From: Chloroflexota bacterium
GTDB taxonomy: Bacteria > Chloroflexota > UBA5177
Direction of reading: 5' to 3'
DNA length: 24,931 nucleotides
Assembly (NCBI GenBank): GCA_036391775.1
Contig: DASVZE010000195.1
Span: 1 to 24,931 of the forward strand
Part shown: positions 13,249 to 24,072 of the stretch, piece after piece
How positions within the stretch are numbered: position 1 is the stretch's first letter
Layout: every line of letters starts with the position of its first letter
Program-made: the position numbers and the translations under genes
Notes under the pieces: generated by a model
What the model was told of the DNA's origin: nothing
What the model saw: only the letters and a program-made list of their open reading frames with translations
Database searches by the model: none

Positions 13249-14652
13249 ATGCCATCCACCATGGAGCGCGGCAGAACCGCAGCAAGTACCTTGGTTGGCG
13301 GTGCAAGTCGCGAAGCGGAGCTTGCTGCCTCATATCACCGCGTACTACAGGACGATACAGATCTGGCGGAGCGCTGTTTTGCGCAGCTCATTGAGGCACA
13401 CGAGGAAGGCAGACTGCTGTTCCAGGGTCGCCTTCTCTGCAGCGTCTTGCGCCCCAGGTTCTTGCCTGCCGGCACGGTGAAAGAGCTGGAAAGCGTCAGT
13501 AGCACACTCGCGGAGATCCTGGAGCGCTACGGGGAAGAACTCCTCAAGTCGGAGGAAGGACTCGACCTTATCCATGCATCCGAGAACGAACGAGAGATAT
13601 GGTCGATCGATCCCGGCTACCAGGGCTTCACCCTGACGTCTCGCCTGGACTCATTCTTGTTCGGGGATCAACTTCGATTTGTCGAATATAACGCGGAGAG
13701 TCCCGCAGGCATCGGATACTGTGATCGGCTCACCGATGTCTTCGAGACAATGCCGTCAATGCAGCAATGGTCGCAAGATTACGGTGTCGATCGCTTTCAT
13801 GCCCGGCGCCATCTACTGGAAGCAATTCTCTGGGCCTACCACGAGTGGGGCGGAAGCGATACCCCGCGTATTGCCATTATCGACTGGGACCACGTCGCCA
13901 CTCACCGCGATTTCGAGCTGTGCGCCGAGTATTTCCGGGGTCGGGGTTTTCCCACCGTACTGACCGATCCCCGCCACCTTGAATACCGCAACGGACACCT
14001 ATGGTGTGGTAATGAAGAGGTGCGCCTGGTGTATCGCAGAGTTCTCCTTCACGAGCTTCTGGACAAGCGAGCGGAAGCATCCGGTCTGCTTGACGCTTAT
14101 CGGGATGGAGCGGTCTGCATGGTGAACTCCCCGCGCTCGAAAATATTGCATAAGAAAACCGTCTTCGCGTTACTCAGCGAGCGCTTGCTGGATGTCCCTC
14201 TCTCTGAAAGTGAAGAAAAGCTCGTCGACAACGTGGTCCCGTGGACACGCGTCGTCCGGTCTGGAACGACGACTTACGGGGACGCTCGCGTCGACTGTCT
14301 TCGCTTCATTCTCGGCGCGCGCGATCGCATGGTTCTCAAGCCGGTTGATGATTACGGGGGACGGGGGGTGGTACTGGGTTGGGAAACCGATCCGGCAGAG
14401 TGGGAGCAAGCTGTGGAAGAGGCAGCCGAAAAGCACTTTGTGGTCCAGGAGCGGGTTCCTATTCCCGAGGCCGAGTTTCCCACATGGCAAGAAAACGATG
14501 TCGACCTGGTCTCTATGCTGGTAGATACAGATCCGTTGCTGTTCCGGAGGCGCGCGGGCAGTATCTTGACACGCATCTCGAGCAGCGCGTTGCTCAACGT
14601 CTCCGCGGGGAGCGGAAGCACCACGCCAACCTTCATGGTCCAGGAGGCATAG
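13249..14652 (+). CDS. Circularly permuted ATP-grasp amidoligase (glutathionylspermidine synthase-like)
   Basis: SRLDSF...FVEYNAESPAG corresponds to the R-x-D and E-x-N metal/ATP motifs of Gsp synthase-type ligases. Also LHKKTVFALLS, VLKPVDDYGGRGVVLG and FVVQERV. Confidence 0.85.
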   Translation: MPSTMERGRTAASTLVGGASREAELAASYHRVLQDDTDLAERCFAQLIEAHEEGRLLFQGRLLCSVLRPRFLPAGTVKELESVSSTLAEILERYGEELLKSEEGLDLIHASENEREIWSIDPGYQGFTLTSRLDSFLFGDQLRFVEYNAESPAGIGYCDRLTDVFETMPSMQQWSQDYGVDRFHARRHLLEAILWAYHEWGGSDTPRIAIIDWDHVATHRDFELCAEYFRGRGFPTVLTDPRHLEYRNGHLWCGNEEVRLVYRRVLLHELLDKRAEASGLLDAYRDGAVCMVNSPRSKILHKKTVFALLSERLLDVPLSESEEKLVDNVVPWTRVVRSGTTTYGDARVDCLRFILGARDRMVLKPVDDYGGRGVVLGWETDPAEWEQAVEEAAEKHFVVQERVPIPEAEFPTWQENDVDLVSMLVDTDPLLFRRRAGSILTRISSSALLNVSAGSGSTTPTFMVQEA

Positions 14653-14653
14653 A

Positions 14654-15781
14654 GTGCAAACAGAATTCACTATCGGCATTGAAGAAGAATTTCAGATTAT
14701 CGATCCCGAGACCCGTAATCTCCGTTCGTCTATCACAGAGATGCTGGCAAGCGGGGAGCCCATCATGGGAGAGCAGATCAAAAAAGAAATGTTCCAGGCA
14801 ATGGTGGAAGTGGGTACTCACGTCTGCCGGGATGTCGTTGAGGCTCGACGGCAGGTCATCTCGTTGAGACGGCAAATCTCCGGTCTGGCTGAAGGAATAG
14901 GTGCCACAATCGTCGCGGCAGGAGCTCACCCATTTGCCGATTGGCAAGAAATGGAGATCACCGAAGACACCCGGTATACCAGCTTGACCAAAGACCTGCA
15001 GGAGATCGCGCGCTCGATCGCGGTCTATGGCATGCACGTCCATGTCGGCATAGAAGATCGCGATCACGCTGTGGAGATCATGAATGAGGCACGATACTTC
15101 CTGCCTCACATCCTCGCTCTCTCCACTAACTCCCCCTTCTGGCGCGGCCGGGACACCGGGCTGAAGTCGTATCGATCCGTCGTGTGGGGCCGCATGCCTC
15201 GCTCCGGTATTCCGGATACGTTTCTGTCCTGGGACGACTACACGCACTTCGTCAATACGCTCTTACGCACCAATTCGATCGACGAGCCAAAAAAGATCTG
15301 GTGGGATATTCGGCCGCACCCGCGTTTCAACACGCTCGAATTTCGGGTTTGCGACATGCAAACTCGGGTGGACGACGCCATATGTATTGCCGCTCTCTTC
15401 CAGGCTGTCGTGGCCAAGCTGTACAAGCTCCGCCGGCTAAACCTCGGTTTTCGGATTTACCAGCGCGCATTGATCTCAGAAAATCGCTGGCGCGCCATTC
15501 GGTACGGCCTCGACGGCGATCTTATCGACTTCGGCAAAGTCAAAGAAGTTCCGATGCGCCAGCTAGCAGTTGAGCTTCTTGAGTTTGTCGACGATGTGAT
15601 CGACGACCTTGGCAGCCGTCAGGCGTTGCAGCACTTATACGTCATTCTGGAGGAAGGCACCGGCGCCGACCGGCAGCTTGCCGAATATGCTCAGCATCAG
15701 GATCTTGTAAAAGTGGTCGATTTCTTATCGGCCGAGACCCTCAGAGACGTGAAGATGTCCGAAACACAAGCCGCACTCTAA
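14654..15781 (+). CDS. Carboxylate-amine ligase, GCS2/YbdK family (glutamate--cysteine ligase 2-like)
   Basis: FTIGIEEEFQIID, EMFQAMVEVGT, GAHPF, GMHVHVG, NSPFWRGRDTG, WWDIRPHP, TLEFRVCD and ENRWRAIRYG. GTG start with AGGAGG inside the end of the upstream gene. Confidence 0.96.
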   Translation: MQTEFTIGIEEEFQIIDPETRNLRSSITEMLASGEPIMGEQIKKEMFQAMVEVGTHVCRDVVEARRQVISLRRQISGLAEGIGATIVAAGAHPFADWQEMEITEDTRYTSLTKDLQEIARSIAVYGMHVHVGIEDRDHAVEIMNEARYFLPHILALSTNSPFWRGRDTGLKSYRSVVWGRMPRSGIPDTFLSWDDYTHFVNTLLRTNSIDEPKKIWWDIRPHPRFNTLEFRVCDMQTRVDDAICIAALFQAVVAKLYKLRRLNLGFRIYQRALISENRWRAIRYGLDGDLIDFGKVKEVPMRQLAVELLEFVDDVIDDLGSRQALQHLYVILEEGTGADRQLAEYAQHQDLVKVVDFLSAETLRDVKMSETQAAL

Positions 15782-15793
15782 AGGAGAGTACCA

Positions 15794-16744
15794 GTGAAGA
15801 TCGGCCTACTGGTTGGACGCGAGAACACGTTTCCGCAGGCATTCATTGACCGAGTGAACAGCAAGGGCGTACGGGGTATCACCGCAGAGATGATCCGTCT
15901 CGGCGGGACCAGGCTGAATGATGAGATTCCGTACCGGTTGATTGTCGACCGGATATCACACGAGATTCCGTATTACCGGCTCTACCTGAAGCAGGCCGTG
16001 GCGCAGGGAGTGATTGTGATCAATAATCCCTTCTGGTGGAGCGCGGATGACAAGTATTTTGGCTGCCTTCTTGCCGAGCGAGTGGGAGTTGCGGTACCTA
16101 AAACCGTGCTCCTACCCAATCTCGAGTACGACGCCGACATCATCGACGAATCTCTGAGAAACCTGACTGAGATCCCATGGGAAGACCATATCGCCTACAC
16201 GGGGCTTCCGGCAGTCCTGAAGCCGGCAATTGGTGGCGGGAACAAGAACATCCACATGGTGGATACACTCGACGAGCTAAAGGCCGCCTATCAGACAAGC
16301 GGTTCACTGCAGATGATTTTGCAGGAGAAAATCGAGTACGAAGACTATGTCCGCTGCTGGTGTCTGGGAAGAAAGTACGTGTTCTTCTCGCGATACGGCC
16401 ACTTCTTGCCGCGCGAGGAGCGTTATATCCAGCAGTCTCAGGGCATCTCCGCGGCACTGCAGGAGCGCGTCGTGGGCGACGTTCTCAAGCTGTGCGATGG
16501 GCTCGGATACGACATGAATACGGTGGAGATGGCAATTCGCGACGGTATTCCATATGCCATCGACTTTCTCAATCCGGCGTGCGACATGGACCGCAACTCC
16601 ATTCGCGAGGAACGCTTCGAATGGGTCGTGGAGCATATGGCCACGATGTGCATCGAGTACGCACTAGGCGAGCGGGAACCCGCCAGTACCGCGTGGTGGG
16701 ACGCGCTGGTGCAGCTTCCTGAGCGCGCGGTTGTTGCTCCATGA
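15794..16744 (+). CDS. RimK/glutathione synthetase-like ATP-grasp ligase of unknown substrate
   Basis: NNPFWWSADDK, VAVPKTVLLP, AVLKPAIGGG, MILQEKIE and YDMNTVEMAIRDGIPYAIDFLNP. GTG start with RBS AAGGAG. Confidence 0.85.
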   Translation: MKIGLLVGRENTFPQAFIDRVNSKGVRGITAEMIRLGGTRLNDEIPYRLIVDRISHEIPYYRLYLKQAVAQGVIVINNPFWWSADDKYFGCLLAERVGVAVPKTVLLPNLEYDADIIDESLRNLTEIPWEDHIAYTGLPAVLKPAIGGGNKNIHMVDTLDELKAAYQTSGSLQMILQEKIEYEDYVRCWCLGRKYVFFSRYGHFLPREERYIQQSQGISAALQERVVGDVLKLCDGLGYDMNTVEMAIRDGIPYAIDFLNPACDMDRNSIREERFEWVVEHMATMCIEYALGEREPASTAWWDALVQLPERAVVAP

Positions 16745-16755
16745 TTCGGCACTGA

Positions 16756-17658
16756 ATGCGCCACGCGATCGAGTTAGGCGCTGTCACAAAGATTTATAGG
16801 GGCGATGTTCGCGCCCTTGACGAGGTGACACTGACAGTCGAGGCAGGTGAGCACTGCTGCCTTCTAGGCCCGAACGGGGCGGGGAAGACCACCGTCATTC
16901 GCTTGCTTCAGGGTGCACTCGCTCCATCCGCGGGCACGATAACTATTCTGGGTGCAGCGGCTAGCGGCCGGGATCTGCTCGCGGCCAAACTGCAGGTAGG
17001 GGTGGTGCCTCAGAGTCCCGGCCTCTATCCTGACCTGACCGTTGAGGAGTATCTGTCGTTCGTTGCCTCGCTGTACGGTCGGGGACAACCTGGACGCACG
17101 GCCGAGGATTACGGGCTGGGAGAATACTTGAAGCGGCCGTGCGCCACGCTCTCGGGAGGCTATCAGCGCAGGCTTCTGGTCGCAGCGGCAGTCATGACCG
17201 AGCCGGAACTTCTTCTTTTCGATGAGCCGACAGTTGGCCTGGATCCGCTTGCGGCATCGCAGACTCGTTCTCTCCTGCGCGCGGCAATGCGTAATCGGAC
17301 GGTTCTCATGAGCACGCACAACTTGTTGGAGGCGGAAGAACTTTGCGATACCGTCATCATCATGCAGCGCGGGTCGGTTCTGGTCCATGAACGGATAGAG
17401 GATCTGCGGCGGCAGTCCGCTCCCAGGGTGTGCTTGCGTGCGCGGCAGGATTCGCAGTGTCTGGGTAAGAGCCTGGATACGCTTCAGCTTCCTTGGGCGG
17501 AGCGCGACGGGTCCGTTTGGCTACAGCTTGACAAACCACAGAGTCAAGCCCCCGCCGTTCTTCGCCGCCTGCTGTCCGACGGTATCGACGTGTATGAATG
17601 TCGTATCGTTCAACCCAGCCTGGAAGACGTCTTTGTGGATCTCGTGACCCAATCATGA
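16756..17658 (+). CDS. ABC-2 type exporter, ATP-binding subunit
   Basis: Walker A GPNGAGKT, signature LSGGYQRR, Walker B LLLFDEP, H-loop STHNL, and the C-terminal PSLEDVFV typical of DrrA/CcmA-like ATPases. Confidence 0.95.
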   Translation: MRHAIELGAVTKIYRGDVRALDEVTLTVEAGEHCCLLGPNGAGKTTVIRLLQGALAPSAGTITILGAAASGRDLLAAKLQVGVVPQSPGLYPDLTVEEYLSFVASLYGRGQPGRTAEDYGLGEYLKRPCATLSGGYQRRLLVAAAVMTEPELLLFDEPTVGLDPLAASQTRSLLRAAMRNRTVLMSTHNLLEAEELCDTVIIMQRGSVLVHERIEDLRRQSAPRVCLRARQDSQCLGKSLDTLQLPWAERDGSVWLQLDKPQSQAPAVLRRLLSDGIDVYECRIVQPSLEDVFVDLVTQS

Positions 17659-18386
17659 GGCGGCGTTTCGCGGCTCTCTTGCGCAAAGAGATGAAGCAAC
17701 TATTGCGGTCACGGAAGACTGTCATCGCAGCCGCGATGGTCCCCGCATTGATGTTGTTGTTCGTCGCGTTCGGAAACATCCTCACGCTCAAAGTGGGATT
17801 CGCCTCCAAGGAGATCTATCTCCTTTCATCCACGCGGCGAGTATCGGGAGCATTCCTGCTCCAGCATTACACCTTGCCGGTGCTCGTGACGATCAGCGCC
17901 CTTGTTGTGCCGTCCATAGTCATGGGTGATTTGCTCTTCGGTGAGCGGGAGCGACGTACGCTCGATCTCCTGGTCGCGTTACCTGTCTCGGTCTACGATG
18001 TCGTTCTCGCCAAGCTGACGGCTGTTCTTGGGTTTGCGATCTGCGTGATAGGCCCTCTCTTCGTCCTGAACACCCTGATGGTGTCGGCTGCAGGATACGG
18101 GGCTGTGCCTCAGACCGCTGCTCTGGCCGGACTCCTGGTGGCGTCCGTCTGCTACTCGACTTCCAGCGCGCTATTGGTCGCCGTGGTTGCTGGAGAGGCG
18201 CGTGCCGCGAACATCGTCAGCGGACTGGTACTCGGGCCGGTGGTGCCGGTCGAGGGTCTGGTTCTAGCGGCGGTCAAGTCGTATGCGGCAATCGTGGCGT
18301 CCGCGTCCGTCTTGCTCGCCGTGGCTTGCGTCCTCCTCATCTGGTCGCTCCGCCTGCTGAGCTTCGAAAGACTGGCCGGCGGTTAA
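17655..18386 (+). CDS. ABC-2 type exporter, permease subunit
   Basis: MRRRFAALLRKEMKQLLRS, GERERRTLDLLVALPVS...VVLAKL and about six TM segments. ATG 17655 overlaps the ATPase stop (ATGA). Confidence 0.92.
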   Translation: MRRRFAALLRKEMKQLLRSRKTVIAAAMVPALMLLFVAFGNILTLKVGFASKEIYLLSSTRRVSGAFLLQHYTLPVLVTISALVVPSIVMGDLLFGERERRTLDLLVALPVSVYDVVLAKLTAVLGFAICVIGPLFVLNTLMVSAAGYGAVPQTAALAGLLVASVCYSTSSALLVAVVAGEARAANIVSGLVLGPVVPVEGLVLAAVKSYAAIVASASVLLAVACVLLIWSLRLLSFERLAGG

Positions 18387-18445
18387 TAGGGGGCATAACA
18401 TTTGCCGCACGTCCGGCGACGCGACGTACAGTGGAAGGAGGATCT

Positions 18446-18946
18446 ATGCAAGTACACGAAATAATGACGCCACAGGACTTCAGCCTGCACTCCGGCGCCA
18501 CACTCCTTGAGGCGCTCGAGGCAGTGCGAATCCATGGATGCTCGGTCCTTCCTGTCACAGCAGATGATCGCCTCATAGGCGCCGTCACACTGGCTTCTAT
18601 TCAGTCAACTGCCGCGGAGGCCGGCCTTGCCGCGGGCTCGCTTCCGGTTGAACAGGCTATGGAGCGGAATCCGACATATTGCTACGCCGACGAGGACATC
18701 GTCGAGGCAGAAGACGATGTCCAACAAGACCGGCCATTCCTGATCGTGGTCGACCGAGACAAAAGGGTCGTTGGGACCGTCGCAACACAGGATCTGTGCA
18801 CCGAGATCGGCAGAATGCGGGGTCCCGTGACCGGCTCTCTCGGCAGCGCTTACCCGGACGTCGCATTCGACGAAGACCGTGTGGAATATCAGAGCGAGGA
18901 GTCTTTTCCTGCTAGCGACCCGCCGCCTGGCTCCAGCGCGCAGTAA
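18446..18946 (+). CDS. CBS domain pair protein with an acidic ESFPASDPP C-terminal motif
   Basis: MQVHEIMT...LPVTADDRLIGAVT and VEQAMERNP...IVVDRDKRVVGTVA are two CBS motifs. RBS AGGAGG before ATG 18446. Confidence 0.85.
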   Translation: MQVHEIMTPQDFSLHSGATLLEALEAVRIHGCSVLPVTADDRLIGAVTLASIQSTAAEAGLAAGSLPVEQAMERNPTYCYADEDIVEAEDDVQQDRPFLIVVDRDKRVVGTVATQDLCTEIGRMRGPVTGSLGSAYPDVAFDEDRVEYQSEESFPASDPPPGSSAQ

Positions 18947-18958
18947 CGCATTGCACTG

Positions 18959-19690
18959 CTAGAACTCGAGGACCAGATACGGCCGTTCCTCGTTCTTCAG
19001 TCGCATGATATGCTCGGCGACGTTGTAGACCGGCGTTCCTCGTAGCGTGCGACCTTCGTGAGAACCTCGGTGTGCGTGTCCGTGAACCACGGCGCTGGCG
19101 CCCAACCGGTCAACCGGCTCGGCCAGCCGCGATGAGCCAAGGAAAGGAAAGATTTCGGCTGGCTCCCCCTCAACGGTTCCGCGTACCGGCGCGTAGTGCA
19201 GCACAACCACCCTGTGTTCCGTGCGAAGTTTGGCCAGGCTGCTTTCCAGGATCATCACTTCGTCGAGTGTCTCGCGCACGAAACGCTTGATCATCTCTTC
19301 ACCCCACGGTGCCAGGGCGTGCCCGTCGAAGCCGCCGCAAAACCCCTTGGCGCCGGCGAACCCCACTCCCTGTATTTCGCACGGCTCGGTATCCAGGATT
19401 GTCACACCGGCCCCGCGCAGAATTCGAACAACGTCATCTTGGTGACCACACTCATAGTCGTGGTTTCCCAATACCGCAACCACCGGCACCTGGCAGGCGG
19501 CGTGTAGATCTTCCGCCAGGACCTCCGCCTCGCGCGGCGTCCCGCGATTCGTCAAATCTCCGGCCAGGGCGAGCACATCGGCATCCTCGCTGACGTGCCG
19601 GAAGAGCTCGCGCGCCTTTCCGGCACTGCTCTCCGACACATGTATGTCGGCAACGGCTGCTACTCGGACTTTCTCTGTACTACGTGGCAT
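18959..19690 (-). CDS. Calcineurin-like metallophosphoesterase
   Basis: All five metal-ligand motifs are present: ADIH, AGDLTN, GNHD, VLHY and HGHAH. ATG at 19690 behind GGGAG; the ORF-track start at 19879 overlaps the upstream gene. Confidence 0.93.
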   Translation of the reverse strand: MPRSTEKVRVAAVADIHVSESSAGKARELFRHVSEDADVLALAGDLTNRGTPREAEVLAEDLHAACQVPVVAVLGNHDYECGHQDDVVRILRGAGVTILDTEPCEIQGVGFAGAKGFCGGFDGHALAPWGEEMIKRFVRETLDEVMILESSLAKLRTEHRVVVLHYAPVRGTVEGEPAEIFPFLGSSRLAEPVDRLGASAVVHGHAHRGSHEGRTLRGTPVYNVAEHIMRLKNEERPYLVLEF

Positions 19691-19709
19691 TGACGCTCCC
19701 CCCATACAG

Positions 19710-20456
19710 TCAGGACTGTTTGAATCCCCACTCGTATCCCCAGTCTTTGACGTCGACCAGGTATTGCGTGCGGGACAGCAGTGGACCACGACAGATGCGG
19801 TCTTGCGGCGTCGAGAGAGCGTTCTGGCTCGCTGCTCGTTCAAGCAAGCGCGTATATATCCACTCCGGGACGCACTCACGCTCCGATGGGTAGACGAAGC
19901 GGAAGGTTAAGAGGTGTGCGAGCAAGACTTCCCAATGCAAATCCATACGCTGGAGTAAGCGGCTCCAATCGAGCGCCGATCCGCATCGGAGAATCATGTG
20001 CAAGACGTCGGCTCCATCAAATCGGTCACGGTCTTGCACGTAAAGTTTGGTCCAGATAAGTTCCTCTGCCGGAGTCAAAAGGGTTGTGCACCCGAGAAAT
20101 TCAATCTCTCTGGCGTTCTTGAACCAGTCTTGATCGACGCGACACTGATTGTTTGCGGAATTAAAGATTATGTCAATATAGGTCGACTTGTCGCGCGCTT
20201 TGGCCAGCCAGTTGGCGTCTACCACGGACGTCTCGAAGCCGGCGTCGGCGAGAGCGCGCAGTATTCCCTCATAGTCACCCGGTAGGCAGAAGATATCAAG
20301 GTCTTTGGTCTGACGCGCAATCCCCGTGTACTCCCGGAGAGCGAACGCGCCTCCGATCATGAACGGTATTGTTGATTCATACAGCGCTGTCATGACCGCG
20401 CGATAGGACTCTGATTCTCTGTCGTCGATGGTTGCTTCGTCCATCAAGCCTCTCAA
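19710..20456 (-). CDS. Pol-beta superfamily nucleotidyltransferase, uncharacterised
   Basis: IGGAFAL (hGG[A/S]), TKDLDIF (DxD), YIDIIF (third acidic residue) and a C-terminal K...R..D..D segment (WTKLYVQDRDRFDGADV). The start is probably ATG 20444. Confidence 0.85.
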   Translation of the reverse strand: MRGLMDEATIDDRESESYRAVMTALYESTIPFMIGGAFALREYTGIARQTKDLDIFCLPGDYEGILRALADAGFETSVVDANWLAKARDKSTYIDIIFNSANNQCRVDQDWFKNAREIEFLGCTTLLTPAEELIWTKLYVQDRDRFDGADVLHMILRCGSALDWSRLLQRMDLHWEVLLAHLLTFRFVYPSERECVPEWIYTRLLERAASQNALSTPQDRICRGPLLSRTQYLVDVKDWGYEWGFKQS

Positions 20457-20573
20457 GCGCGAATGAGAACAAATCTGGGCAAGATGGGTGCCAGCTAAAA
20501 CCGGACCGCGGCCATCGCGCGTAGAATTGCTCGCGGCTCATGCCTGCGCCGCGAAAGGCCCATTCACCCTCTC

Positions 20574-21218
20574 ATGCACTTCACCGCCGCATCACTCCAA
20601 CAGATACTGGGAACCTGGGGATATGTGGCGGTCTTTATTTTTGTCGCAATAGAGAGCACGGGGATACCGTTCCCGGGAGAAACGATGCTCATCACGGCGG
20701 CAGCCTATGCCGGAACAGGACACCTGCAGATCCCGTTCGTCATTGGCGCGGCTGCGATGGGAGCCGTGATGGGCGACAATCTTGGTTACCTCATCGGGCG
20801 CACAGGTGGCCGCTCGATTGTGGAGCGCTACGGTCACCACGTGCGTCTGGACGCAGACAAGCTCGAGGTCGCCGAAAACTTCTTCTCCCGGCACGGAGAC
20901 AAGACCGTCTTCTTCGGACGATTCGTGGCAGTTCTGCGCGCCTGGGCTGCATTTCTTGCCGGCCTCAATCGGATGCATTGGATGAAGTTCTATGCCTTCA
21001 ACGCTGCAGGGGGAATAGTCTGGTCACTATTCTTCGGCATCCTTGCGTTTTACCTCGGCAAGAACCTGCCGTTGCTGGAGAAGATCGTCCGAGCCATCGG
21101 AATCGGCGGTGTGGCACTGGCTGTGGTCGTGATCGCCGGAATCTTCGTGTGGCACCTCAAGCGGCAGGCCCATCGGCGAGAGGAGGCCGGCCACCCGGAC
21201 ACATCAAAGTCGGCTTAG
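20574..21218 (+). CDS. dedA: DedA family membrane protein
   Basis: ESTGIPFPGE, GDNLGYLIGR and FFGRFVAVLR (the F-x-x-R-F motif). Confidence 0.95.
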   Translation: MHFTAASLQQILGTWGYVAVFIFVAIESTGIPFPGETMLITAAAYAGTGHLQIPFVIGAAAMGAVMGDNLGYLIGRTGGRSIVERYGHHVRLDADKLEVAENFFSRHGDKTVFFGRFVAVLRAWAAFLAGLNRMHWMKFYAFNAAGGIVWSLFFGILAFYLGKNLPLLEKIVRAIGIGGVALAVVVIAGIFVWHLKRQAHRREEAGHPDTSKSA

Positions 21219-21253
21219 CTGACCCGGTATCCCGGGAGCGGTGGGCAGGGGGA

Positions 21254-21291
21254 ACCTGGCCGACAGGCAGCGAGCTGGCTGGTTGTCAGGT
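21254..21291. other. Long imperfect hairpin between the convergent dedA and DUF5522 genes
   Basis: ACCTGG..CGAC.AG.CAG pairs with CTG.CT.GTTG.TCAGGT, with bulges. No clear U-tract; it may be a 3'-end stabilising or termination structure. Confidence 0.4.
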
Positions 21292-21311
21292 AGTAGAGGT
21301 GGCGACAGCAC

Positions 21312-21506
21312 TTATTCGGCAGGCAAGACCGATCGCTTGAGGTCGGCCCGCGGCACCGCATCCAGACCACCATGGCGAGGCTCGTAGGGACAGTTTCGGC
21401 ACCCGTTCGCACAACAATAGCCACGAGCGAGCAGAAAGGCGGCGGATAATGCGCCGTTCTCATCGAATATGTCGTCTGCCACATTCGTCTCTTCGGGTCC
21501 GGTCAT
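21312..21506 (-). CDS. DUF5522-like small Cys-rich protein
   Basis: FLLARGYCCANGCRNCPY matches the L-x-R-G-x-CC-x-x-GC-x-x-CPY signature. Confidence 0.85.
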   Translation of the reverse strand: MTGPEETNVADDIFDENGALSAAFLLARGYCCANGCRNCPYEPRHGGLDAVPRADLKRSVLPAE

Positions 21507-21624: not shown

Positions 21625-22206
21625 TCAGTAGCCGCTCCAATCCACATGCGGCGGGAGCACGAATGGTGGGCCGATCTCGATCGCGATCTCCTGATGGTCT
21701 CGCAGCACGATAGTACGAGGATCTCCGGTAAAGACTCTTCGATTAACGTATACCCGCATGCTCGTTCCATGCTCTACCGGCAGTCCTGCCACCCTTGCAC
21801 GGGAAAGCGGCTGTCCCCAGATATCAAAGAAGTAACCGAGCTGAGGAGCAAAGGTTGCGGGCGCCTCGACGTGAATGATGCCGTCAATGTCATGCGTGTG
21901 AAGCCAGTAAATACACCCGTTTGATCCAAACCCAACGCCCGCAGGGATGAGCGTATATCGTCCCCGGTCGAGCATAAGGAGGTGCGCGTGGATATGGTAA
22001 TCCGCGTGCTCCCCGTTGTCACACGATATGCCGTCAATCGTTCGACCCGTATTTGCCACAGATGTGGGTGCCGGAGGGCCAACCTGTTGCACGGCGCTGG
22101 CCTGTCCGAGACAGCCCGTGAACAGAACCAGCAGGAGTACCGCCGCGACAGAGCACCTTCCGCTTGACCAGGCATAGAAGGCAACGGAGCGAGTGGCGGG
22201 TTTCAC
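21625..22206 (-). CDS. Exported or lipoprotein hypothetical protein with a His-rich putative metal site
   Basis: Hydrophobic leader ending in LFTGC (lipobox-like). IDGISCD, YHIHAHL, GCIYWLHTHD..GIIHVE and LGYFFDIWGQPL. Confidence 0.8.
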   Translation of the reverse strand: MKPATRSVAFYAWSSGRCSVAAVLLLVLFTGCLGQASAVQQVGPPAPTSVANTGRTIDGISCDNGEHADYHIHAHLLMLDRGRYTLIPAGVGFGSNGCIYWLHTHDIDGIIHVEAPATFAPQLGYFFDIWGQPLSRARVAGLPVEHGTSMRVYVNRRVFTGDPRTIVLRDHQEIAIEIGPPFVLPPHVDWSGY

Positions 22207-22269: not shown

Positions 22270-24072
22270 TTACGGCTGCCCGGTGGGTTGCGGCGTTGCC
22301 ATTACCTCAGTGATGGTCGGCGTTGGAGATGGGGTAGAAGTCGGAAGTACCAGCTCTCTACGCCTCGGCACCGGTCGTTTCGAGCTGTGCTTAACCGGTG
22401 ACGGCCGTATCGCCCATGCAGCATGATTGACGACGACCTTACGCCGACCTACTGGTGGGCGTCGGATTATCCGTACCCTCCGCGCCGCTGAACGCGTGAC
22501 ACGGGGCACAGGGGTCGCCGGCGGGGCGAAGTGTAAAAGGGGACCGGGCGGGATACGTGGCGCCAGCGACGGAGAAGAAAGCATATACACTGGGGACCCA
22601 TCAGCCGGTAGGTTGATCACGGCCCAGCCGTCTCGAACGTCTACGGAAGAAATGACATTACCCATCGAATCCAGTTCAACGGCCGACCCGGCAGACCATC
22701 CCACTCCGACCCCGGATGCGCCGTAACCCGTCGTCCATGCCACGACCGCCGGCCCACGAGACGTACTGAATCGCAGGGCATAATCGCCGTCCTGGCCCGC
22801 GGATTCCGCGCCGGTAAAGCGCGCGCCGGCGAGAAGGCGGGCAAGGAAGCCGTAAGCGGCGAAAGCAGGCTTTCCGGAAAGATCGTAACGGAGCAAGCCA
22901 AAGTGTCCTTCCGGGTCTGATGCAACATGCGCATCGTCTCTCAAGTCGTACCAGAAGATACGTTGCACACCAGCGGCGGCCGACAGGGCATAGAAGCGCA
23001 ACAGATAGGAAGCCTGTTGGTCTTCACTGGTACAAACCTCACATCCGTAGCCTGCCGCCCAACCAATCTCTGTGAACCAAATCGGGCGGTGCAGGCGGCG
23101 CAGAGACGCCACTTGTTGCAACAGGTCGCTTTCGGGTTCATTTCGGTATGGATGAACCGATACAACGTCGAAGGCACGCGTTCGGGCGGCAACTGCCCGC
23201 ACGAACGGTAAGTCTACTCCACTTGTTCCGGCCATCACCACCACGTTGCGACGATCGGCTCGTTTAATCGCTCTGTAGGCAGCCGAGAGCAAAGTGGCAT
23301 AGTCGCCAGGGCTTGGAGCCGGATGCCAGTACACCAGGCGATCTGGTTCGTTCCATACCTGCCAGTATCTGATGCGGCCCCGAAAATGGCGTGCCACTGC
23401 GTAGGCGTATCGAGCGAAATCCGCGCTCAAGAGCCGAACCGCCGCATGCGGCATGGTGCCGTGATCACCGAATCGCCAGGTATTACTGTAGTCCAGAAGA
23501 CCCAGGATTTGGATTCCCGAGCGCCTCTCCAGGTTGACAACTCGATCGAACGTGGCCCAGTGATAAGGTGCATTCGGACCGCTATGTAGGCGTGTAGCAG
23601 TCAGCTCCTCGCGCACCCAGTGGGCGCCGAGGAGATTAGCGCGAGACACCATGAGGTCTGCAATATTCCAGCTTCGCTGCGTAACAAAAGCACCGACGCC
23701 AAAGATATCCCCAACGCGGTGGGGTCGAAGCACGGTCCTCTGGAGACTCATGGTCCGAGCTCGAGAATGTGCGAGTTTCTTTCTCGACTCCATACGTCGC
23801 ACTTTCGCCGCAGTCTTCTGGGCGTGATGCCGAGCAGTCGACGAAAGACGTTTGTTGCTGGACGCGTGGTGACGGGCGTTGGGCTTCAACCTGCTCCCGC
23901 GCTCGCATCGACGCACGCATCGCTCGCCGCTCTTCTTGCCCGTGTGGCTCGAGGGTAGATTCCATATCTGAGCCAGGTCACGAAATGTCACCTGGCCCTG
24001 GCGGGTAGCGGTCGCGGGCGGCGCCCACGACAGCATCCACAGCGCTATCCCAGCGGCAAACAATGCCCTCAA
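22270..24072 (-). CDS. Secreted clan GH-A glycoside hydrolase (GH5/GH39-like) with polybasic N- and C-terminal extensions
   Basis: Signal peptide. LGAHWVREE, ILGLLDYS, acid/base WQVWNEPD, VSVHPY, nucleophile IWFTEIGW and KPAFAAY. Confidence 0.88.
   Translation of the reverse strand: MRALFAAGIALWMLSWAPPATATRQGQVTFRDLAQIWNLPSSHTGKKSGERCVRRCERGSRLKPNARHHASSNKRLSSTARHHAQKTAAKVRRMESRKKLAHSRARTMSLQRTVLRPHRVGDIFGVGAFVTQRSWNIADLMVSRANLLGAHWVREELTATRLHSGPNAPYHWATFDRVVNLERRSGIQILGLLDYSNTWRFGDHGTMPHAAVRLLSADFARYAYAVARHFRGRIRYWQVWNEPDRLVYWHPAPSPGDYATLLSAAYRAIKRADRRNVVVMAGTSGVDLPFVRAVAARTRAFDVVSVHPYRNEPESDLLQQVASLRRLHRPIWFTEIGWAAGYGCEVCTSEDQQASYLLRFYALSAAAGVQRIFWYDLRDDAHVASDPEGHFGLLRYDLSGKPAFAAYGFLARLLAGARFTGAESAGQDGDYALRFSTSRGPAVVAWTTGYGASGVGVGWSAGSAVELDSMGNVISSVDVRDGWAVINLPADGSPVYMLSSPSLAPRIPPGPLLHFAPPATPVPRVTRSAARRVRIIRRPPVGRRKVVVNHAAWAIRPSPVKHSSKRPVPRRRELVLPTSTPSPTPTITEVMATPQPTGQP

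Follow-up and report, generated by a model that had tools for sequence, protein, structure and literature searches.

A conserved pair of nucleotidyltransferase and metallophosphoesterase genes

We analysed a window of 24,931 nucleotides, contig DASVZE010000195.1 of a Chloroflexota bacterium (assembly GCA_036391775.1), and describe here two adjacent genes on its reverse strand. The first (19710-20444, -; 244 aa from its ATG) codes for a nucleotidyltransferase (NTase) of the Pol-beta fold that resembles MenT, AbiEii, NTP_transf_5 and DUF2204 proteins, and the second (18959-19690, -; 243 aa, with its ATG at 19690) for a cytoplasmic calcineurin-like metallophosphoesterase in which all five catalytic motifs are intact. 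The pairing of these genes is far beyond chance and the functional link between them is very strong. We propose, as a tentative preference held at somewhat below even confidence, that they constitute a dedicated two-enzyme module running an antagonistic, write-and-erase nucleotidylation cycle on a shared cytoplasmic substrate.

A preliminary description of this DNA had treated the two genes as a functional unit and had looked to conservation of the pair across phyla as a check. Co-occurrence, adjacency in many phyla and natural fusions all bear this out. A scan of genome collections gave 80 loci from other phyla, and in 76 of them a phosphoesterase orthologue (40-61% identical) adjoins the NTase gene; they cover Rhizobiaceae, Phyllobacteriaceae, other Alphaproteobacteria, Gemmatimonadota, Verrucomicrobiota, Planctomycetota and Bacillota, and two of the four loci that lack an adjacent pair are cut by a contig end. 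The pair is also present in Bacteroidota (Pontibacter and Chitinophagaceae-like members), and plasmids or chromids of Sphingobium, Azospirillum and Sinorhizobium carry it among unrelated neighbours. Identity of the proteins across phyla is unusually high (45-60%), and in most orthologous pairs a 4- or 8-nt overlap of stop and start codons replaces the spacer seen in the window.

Within the Chloroflexota the two genes likewise travel together. Among 41 genomes around the window's own, ranging from the same family through the same phylum, both genes are present in the same eight and neither is present in the other 33. An even sample of the phylum (401 genomes) contains both genes in 30 genomes, only the NTase in five, only the phosphoesterase in seven, and neither in 359, with the totals of 35 NTase and 37 phosphoesterase genomes spread over many families; the rare co-occurrence that would have counted against the preliminary description is not what is seen. 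Five of the seven phosphoesterase-only cases, and two further cases scored as unlinked, are accounted for by a divergent NTase (27-41% identity) lying directly beside the phosphoesterase gene (loci L127, L129 and L132-L136). Two of these were scanned, L127 and L132; both exceed the Pfam thresholds for DUF2204 and NTP_transf_5, and L127 exceeds that for AbiEii as well (35.4 bits).

The arrangement of the two genes varies, and operonic, reversed, divergent, convergent and unlinked configurations (the last for example in genomes G001 and G026) are all represented. The order is NTase followed by phosphoesterase in the clade to which the window belongs, and the genes are divergently transcribed in a second clade. 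The NTase tree departs from taxonomy. The window's clade mixes Chloroflexota, Bacteroidota, Alphaproteobacteria and Verrucomicrobiota, and because phyla are mixed within it we conclude that this clade has moved horizontally. The distribution is patchy, with counts of 3 in 151 Rhizobiales genomes, 14 in 201 Rhizobiaceae and 35 in 401 Chloroflexota. A spread of this kind makes the pair an accessory function of bacteria from soil and rhizosphere, and one that moves horizontally. In the chromids of Sinorhizobium meliloti and S. medicae the pair is found as a single copy in all 63 matching records, at 86-100% identity, and S. meliloti 1021 carries it on pSymB (NC_003078.1, 92650-94250). All-against-all clustering of open reading frames (ORFs) from 25 diverse loci revealed no third conserved gene, only these two recurring. 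The neighbours are ordinary metabolic genes; no defence-island neighbours were seen, and no phage copies of the pair were found.

The nucleotidyltransferase resembles MenT and AbiEii enzymes

The window NTase scores below threshold against each of the Pfam models it approaches, namely NTP_transf_5 (PF14907; 23.6 bits against a cut-off of 31.2), AbiEii (DUF1814, PF08843; 19.9 bits against 22.5) and ANT(2'') (17.7 bits), and no NCBIfam model matches it. Most of its homologues do carry precomputed PF14907 and/or PF09970 (DUF2204) matches, and the family therefore lies at the edge of the NTP_transf_5/DUF2204 models. The family is large, with 4398 homologous protein clusters recovered at E <= 0.001 in a word-indexed search, for which the best available name is 'nucleotidyltransferase'. 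A search of long proteins for domain partners returned mostly stand-alone NTases, together with a few phosphoesterase fusions and one cupin fusion.

The active-site motifs recognised in the preliminary description (GGA, DLD, a third Asp, and K...R..D..D) are all found in the protein as G31-G32-A33, R44-Q-T46-K47-D48-L-D50, D91, and K133...R139.R141.D143.G144.D146. The protein thus has the hG[GS] motif, the D-x-D motif, the third acidic residue and a model of the NTase fold, as expected of the Pol-beta superfamily. In an alignment of 37 NTase sequences G31, G32, R44, T46, K47, D48, D50, D91, K133, G144, D146 and H149 are invariant, and R139, R141 and D143 are kept in at least 90% of the sequences; RxTK is present in all 120 of the closest homologues.

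The AlphaFold2 model of the NTase (pLDDT 93.6) has MenT1 as its top Foldseek matches (8an5 and 8an4, E about 1e-6; for 8an5_B, E = 1.4e-6 with TM-scores of 0.50/0.64), and the further neighbours include ANT(2'')-Ia, JHP933, LnuA, TM1012 and TglT/MenT3 (TglT 6j7r, E = 1.8e-4), as well as FKRP, for which the match is weak (TM about 0.3). With a profile of the NTase family, the closest solved sequence is LnuA (E = 6e-4, over the N-terminal catalytic half), and ANT(2'')-Ia was reached from the window NTase both by Foldseek and, marginally, by phmmer. The catalytic Asp pair of MenT3 is presumably D80 and D82 (the title of a PDB entry names a D82A mutant). Compared by motif spacing rather than by structure superposition, R44-x-T46-K47-D48-x-D50 corresponds to R76-x-S78-K79-D80-x-D82 of MenT3, and T46 falls at the phospho-acceptor position occupied by MenT1 T39 and MenT3 S78. 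Active-site residues described for these toxins are R76, S78 and K79 in MenT3 and T39, D41, K137 and D152 in MenT1, with S78 and T39 being sites of auto-phosphorylation (PMC11375011). By predicted fold and active site, then, the window enzyme is a MenT/AbiEii-like NTase despite the failed Pfam thresholds. Its sole match among the PADLOC models is to AbiEii (E = 0.015), and no PADLOC model for CD-NTases, CBASS or other signalling systems matches it.

The partner is related to phosphodiesterases

The second gene had been described as encoding an intact calcineurin-like phosphoesterase, and the protein indeed scores 54.2 bits against Pfam Metallophos (PF00149; cut-off 21.5) and contains all five metallophosphoesterase motifs (D15xH17, G44-D45, G75-N76-H77-D78, H165 and G204-H205-x-H207), which are invariant in 20 orthologues. 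Four blocks specific to this family, KGFxGGF, FGE..K, HYAP and FLGSSRL, are also invariant in these 20 sequences. Scores against NCBIfam models are far under their cut-offs (SpdA, 19.4 against 400; YfcE, 26.6 against 56; acc_ester, 36.7 against 148). The AlphaFold2 model (pLDDT 93.2) has MPPED2, aq_1956, Rv0805, PptH, TT1561 and GpdQ as Foldseek neighbours, with the highest TM-scores (0.69-0.72) given by PptH (6unc), and GpdQ is also a marginal sequence match among solved structures. Judged from the model, the enzyme lies on the phosphodiesterase side of the superfamily and not with the protein Ser/Thr phosphatases, and its likeness to the class III cyclic-nucleotide phosphodiesterases (Rv0805, CpdA/Icc, SpdA) is one of fold only. 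The SpdA paper lists 15 uncharacterised metallophosphoesterases of S. meliloti and does not treat this one.

The phosphoesterase also matches the PADLOC model PDC-S10, a candidate defence gene (53.7 bits, E = 3.8e-15), although this match is weak: the generic Metallophos model gives at least as high a score, and no phage or defence-island context was seen. We do not take the match to show membership. The active sites of both proteins are intact and under strong purifying selection. Both are acidic, with median isoelectric points of 5.3 (NTase) and 5.6 (phosphoesterase), and no membrane segment or signal peptide is present in either of the window proteins.

Natural fusions of the two enzymes

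Seven natural fusions of 509-518 aa were identified in which the phosphoesterase is N-terminal and the NTase C-terminal, and in which both sets of motifs are kept. Their phosphoesterase parts are 49-55% and their NTase parts 40-44% identical to the window proteins. A further ORF of 591 aa that at first sight joins an NTase to a phosphoesterase (L089:3908-5683, +) has lost the NTase C-terminus and has in its place an Arg/Gly/Pro-rich, low-complexity sequence with an out-of-frame appearance; it is probably a frameshift in a metagenome-assembled genome from long reads, and we left it out of the evidence. P0172 (360 aa) resembles this apparent fusion. At the locus of one true fusion (P0180), a gene for a lipase/esterase-like alpha/beta-hydrolase (L143:4283-5008, +) overlaps the start of the fusion gene by 8 nt.

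The fusions bear on the proposal that the phosphoesterase acts on the NTase itself, removing the phosphate that MenT-type NTases place on their own active-site Ser/Thr to inactivate themselves, and so re-activating the enzyme. The location of T46 at the phospho-acceptor position is in keeping with such a role. All 120 of the close homologues have this Thr, as does every stand-alone NTase with a phosphoesterase next to it, and a phosphatase for phospho-MenT is not mentioned in PMC11375011. However, in all seven intact fusions the Thr is replaced by Ile, Pro or Leu with the phosphoesterase site still intact, and because these proteins have lost the Thr and kept the phosphoesterase site, the conserved role of the phosphoesterase cannot be solely dephosphorylation of the Thr. 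In addition, its fold neighbours are phosphodiesterases rather than protein phosphatases, and there is no antitoxin to induce auto-phosphorylation. We therefore downgraded resetting of phospho-Thr46 and now give it scant credence.

A second possibility is that the NTase makes a nucleotide signal, such as a linear or cyclic oligonucleotide or a modified nucleotide, that is degraded by its class-III-phosphodiesterase-like partner in the manner of Rel/SpoT. The hydrolase precedes the NTase-fold synthetase in Rel/SpoT, and the order in the fusions is the same; furthermore, the phosphoesterase is nearest to the cyclic-nucleotide phosphodiesterases Rv0805 and MPPED2. Against this, no gene for a receptor or effector is conserved near the pair at the 25 loci, and the NTase is not CD-NTase-like and has no PADLOC match to CBASS or other signalling models. 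We know of no MenT-type NTase that makes a free messenger, and consider this explanation very improbable.

The preliminary description had cast the pair as toxin-antitoxin-like, and the combined data on linkage and fusion speak to this directly. If the pair were a toxin-antitoxin or abortive infection system, the NTase would be a growth-arresting toxin and the phosphoesterase would reverse its modification. The similarity of the NTase to MenT1, TglT and AbiEii fits this scheme, and so do the patchy spread with transfer across phyla and an NTase tree at odds with taxonomy, the carriage on plasmids and chromids, and the weak PDC-S10 match. In a classical toxin-antitoxin pair, though, the genes must be co-transcribed and the toxin is never found by itself, whereas divergent, convergent, reversed and unlinked arrangements of these genes are common, separate promoters serve them in many lineages, and one genome that is 99% complete has the NTase alone. 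Fusion of the two enzymes leaves both active sites intact, no gene of the AbiEi or MenA type is present at the locus or conserved among the 25 loci, the gene neighbourhoods are ordinary and without defence islands, and no phage copies were found. High identity across phyla, single-copy occurrence and retention in all 63 Sinorhizobium chromid records are further points against it. A classical toxin-antitoxin pair is thus unlikely, the broader toxin-antitoxin or abortive infection explanation appears quite improbable, and the toxin-antitoxin-like framing is not supported, given the variable, unlinked and fused arrangements, the lack of an antitoxin-type gene and at least one near-complete genome with the NTase only. 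Rather, co-occurrence with linkage in any orientation and with fusion is the signature of two enzymes acting on one substrate, not of a toxin and its antidote.

Additional domains and gene neighbours

Many phosphoesterase orthologues (P0183, P0211, P0217 and about 45 others) have an N-terminal BON domain without a signal peptide, and genes for these BON-phosphoesterases adjoin a DUF2204 NTase gene in either order (L141, L142). The BON domain of DolP binds phospholipid, and BON may bring the phosphodiesterase-linked members to the membrane. An architecture combining BON with DUF2204 is listed for Actinobacteria in Table 1 of the DolP paper (PMC7806268); BON-NTase fusions were not recovered in our own searches and are known only from that report.

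In one Chloroflexota lineage (L002:887-1441, -; L097:5759-6316, +), a gene for a PAP2 phosphatase takes the partner position behind that of an NTase orthologue that is 55% identical to the window protein, and the metallophosphoesterase orthologue is on another contig (G001:C14). Paralogous NTases form a separate clade (36-38% identical) in four Chloroflexota genomes (L010, L011, L119 and L121, in genomes G002, G026, G640 and G421), where they are operonic with glycosyltransferases of the GT4 and/or GT9 (heptosyltransferase-like) families. The active-site Thr is lost (Val or Ala) in L010, L011 and L121 and kept in L119, and all four genomes contain a phosphoesterase orthologue elsewhere. Genome G026 has an NTase paralogue (L008:1474-2244, -; 41% identical) that ends 9 nt before glnA (L008:7-1464, -), with a gene for a Crp-family regulator divergently upstream, and this neighbourhood of NTase and glutamine synthetase may resemble a GlnE-like relationship.

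These contexts raise the question of whether the pair works on lipid or glycan head groups, with an NTase-fold enzyme transferring a nucleotidyl or phospho-alcohol group at the membrane, as LicD- and FKRP-like enzymes do, and the phosphoesterase trimming or recycling the phosphodiester (compare GpdQ, LpxH and ADPRibase-Mn). Fusion of BON to many phosphoesterase orthologues and the BON+DUF2204 entry in Table 1 of PMC7806268 favour such a role, along with the PAP2 lineage, the four genomes in which NTase paralogues are operonic with GT4/GT9 genes and a phosphoesterase is present, the occurrence of GpdQ and FKRP among the fold matches, and the lipase-like hydrolase gene that overlaps the start of one fusion gene. 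But the window proteins themselves contain no membrane segment and no signal peptide, the FKRP matches are weak, the glycosyltransferase-linked NTases are a separate clade in which three of four have lost the active-site Thr, and the PAP2 and lipase contexts are each confined to one lineage. We regard this explanation as distinctly unlikely.

A proposed cycle of nucleotidylation and its reversal

In the cycle that we tentatively prefer, the MenT-like NTase would use a nucleoside triphosphate to attach a nucleoside monophosphate (NMP) through a phosphodiester to a hydroxyl of the acceptor, and the class-III-phosphodiesterase-like partner would hydrolyse the bond between NMP and acceptor. Its logic would be like that of GlnD (NTase with HD hydrolase), Rel/SpoT (hydrolase with NTase-fold synthetase) and PptT/PptH, and it would serve physiology or regulation rather than a poison-antidote role. 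The chemistry, the direction (antagonistic and not sequential) and the acceptor are those that we infer. Antagonism is favoured because NTase-fold enzymes and metal-dependent phosphohydrolases are usually coupled in this way, as in GlnD and Rel/SpoT, and because PptH, to which the phosphoesterase is most similar in fold, is an eraser whose gene lies beside that of its writer.

The data as a whole support a shared substrate for both enzymes, be the relationship one of writing and erasing or of healing and extending. There are weak hints that the acceptor is a small molecule, or a lipid or glycan of the envelope, in preference to RNA; these derive from the acidity of both proteins, the BON fusions, the tabulated BON+DUF2204 architecture, the PAP2 lineage, the glycosyltransferase-linked paralogues and the paralogue adjacent to glnA.

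The sequential relationship can be formulated as healing and extension of RNA 3' ends, in which the phosphoesterase removes a 2',3'-cyclic phosphate or a 3'-phosphate from the end of a damaged tRNA or other RNA and the NTase then adds nucleotides to the 3'-OH so restored. Phosphate removal of this type has precedent in the phosphoesterase domain of Clostridium thermocellum Pnkp and in the HD domain of bacterial CCA-adding enzymes. It is attractive in that MenT1 is the best structural neighbour of the NTase and the active-site motif mirrors that of MenT3, a tRNA 3'-end NTase, and in that enzymes acting in sequence are compatible with both fusions and variable gene order. Phosphoesterase neighbours of the Rv0805 type cleave 2',3'-cNMP (SpdA paper), and CCA-adding enzymes provide a precedent for an NTase combined with a phosphohydrolase (PMC4222275). 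However, both proteins are acidic and without an RNA-binding domain, the recurrent accessory domain is BON and not an RNA-binding module, the 25 loci show no conserved RNA ligase, kinase or Hen1-like partner near the pair, and the NTase paralogues associate with glycosyltransferases and glnA. On balance we consider RNA healing unlikely.

Several observations weigh against the antagonistic cycle. A sequential relation, with the phosphoesterase readying the acceptor and the NTase adding to it, explains co-occurrence and fusions equally well, and R-x-T-K-D-x-D is the motif of the tRNA-modifying MenT toxins, which lends some probability to an RNA 3' end as the acceptor. The hints of a lipid or glycan are indirect and come in part from single lineages. 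In five genomes with the NTase no phosphoesterase could be detected, and two of these genomes are at least 90% complete, including one at 99%. Finally, a biochemically characterised member was not found in the literature on NTP_transf_5, DUF2204, or AbiEii/NTase with metallophosphoesterase; this agrees with the statement in the preliminary description that no product of the pair had been characterised, and we found no curated family, solved structure or paper describing the pair. As to its suggestion that the pair installs and removes an NMP mark, the functional unit holds, and a writer/eraser reading is reasonable for a MenT/AbiEii-like NTase with a phosphodiesterase-type partner; it is the toxin-antitoxin-like part that was not sustained.

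Organization of the locus

The two genes lie as the preliminary description had placed them, both on the reverse strand with a 19-nt gap, and the start of the NTase gene can now be specified. An in-frame TTG at 20456 is an alternative upstream start, and the ATG at 20444 is the more plausible one. The phosphoesterase gene sits inside a longer ORF (19879-18959), and its true start is taken to be the ATG at 19690. The TGA stop codon of the NTase gene is followed by the spacer ctgtatggggggagcgtca (19691-19709, -; 19 nt) and then by this ATG; the spacer holds a Shine-Dalgarno sequence, GGGGGGAG, the last base of which is 5 nt ahead of the ATG. A short spacer with a Shine-Dalgarno sequence points to co-transcription and translational coupling of the two genes.

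The pair was said to be flanked by oppositely oriented genes, and both neighbours are indeed on the forward strand: a CBS-pair protein gene (18446-18946, +) is convergent with the phosphoesterase gene, and a DedA/VTT membrane protein gene (20574-21218, +) is divergent from the NTase gene. The 129 nt between the NTase start and the DedA/VTT gene (20445-20573) are presumed to be the promoter region of the pair. No sigma-70-like match and no terminator-like site was found within 20445-20573, no convincing promoter was found around the pair, and there is no Rfam match within 18000-21500. Further away, a 193-aa ORF with a hydrophobic N-terminus and without a Pfam match (21625-22206, -) is downstream of a gene for a 600-aa protein (22270-24072, -) that has a weak Glyco_hydro_cc domain and long Pro/Arg-rich tails. 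For an upstream operon encoding ATP-grasp/GCS2-type ligases and an ABC-2 exporter (13249-18386, +), no link to the pair was seen.

Implications of the pairing

The components belong to known superfamilies and the logic of their coupling has precedents; what is new is a MenT-like NTase that is outside a toxin-antitoxin context and has a dedicated phosphodiesterase. To our knowledge, NTases of the MenT/AbiEii type are currently understood only as toxins, in toxin-antitoxin or abortive infection systems. It is possible, though we think it doubtful, that a large MenT-like branch spanning phyla, with over 4000 protein clusters and found in bacteria of soil and rhizosphere, works with a dedicated metallophosphodiesterase, either as a switch based on reversible nucleotidylation or as the synthetase and hydrolase of a nucleotide-linked mark or signal yet to be discovered. 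If so, catalytic machinery of the toxin type would serve in a non-toxin setting with an enzyme partner replacing the antitoxin.

The module is widespread, with thousands of sequences in at least eight phyla, and current annotation says only 'nucleotidyltransferase family protein' and 'metallophosphoesterase'. Genetically tractable bacteria carry it, among them S. meliloti 1021 (on pSymB), Mesorhizobium, Azospirillum and Pontibacter. Knowing the substrate could bring to light a reversible modification, or a metabolite derived from a nucleotide, that is new, and the pair could inform how phosphoesterases that lie beside true AbiE/MenT toxins work.

Comparison with known systems

The closest relatives of the NTase are the MenT/AbiEii toxins (MenT1, MenT3/TglT, AbiEii, DUF1814), with which it shares the fold, the R-x-(S/T)-K-D-x-D motif and the downstream Lys and acidic residues, and one divergent NTase beside a phosphoesterase (L127) passes the AbiEii Pfam threshold. 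Unlike those systems, the pair is without a gene for an AbiEi (COG5340) or MenA antitoxin, there being only 129 nt upstream before the divergent DedA gene, and the partner is instead a metallophosphodiesterase that may be divergent, unlinked or fused. The window NTase is also acidic, highly conserved across phyla, and below the AbiEii and NTP_transf_5 cut-offs. With ANT(2'')-Ia and LnuA the similarity is that LnuA is the closest solved sequence by profile and ANT(2'')-Ia is reached by phmmer and Foldseek; these enzymes, however, have a His at the position of the family's invariant Thr, are without the long helical domain that carries K...R.R.DG.D at the C-terminus, and are not partnered by a phosphoesterase.

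GlnD, Rel/SpoT and the class II CCA-adding enzymes with an HD domain also couple a Pol-beta-fold transferase to a metal-dependent phosphohydrolase, including by fusion. Their hydrolase acts on the same substrate as the transferase, as is proposed for the window pair. The hydrolase here is calcineurin-like and not of the HD type, there are no ACT, PII-related or tRNA-binding domains, and no sequence relationship to these three groups was detected. The putative writer of the window pair has a Pol-beta NTase fold and, in contrast to PptT of M. tuberculosis, is not a phosphopantetheinyl transferase, and the phosphoesterase is only about 15% identical to PptH. The genes for PptT and PptH share an operon, and the common theme, as proposed for the window pair, is a transferase that makes a phosphodiester encoded beside a metallophosphoesterase that cleaves it, PptH having TM-scores of 0.69-0.72 with the model of the window enzyme.

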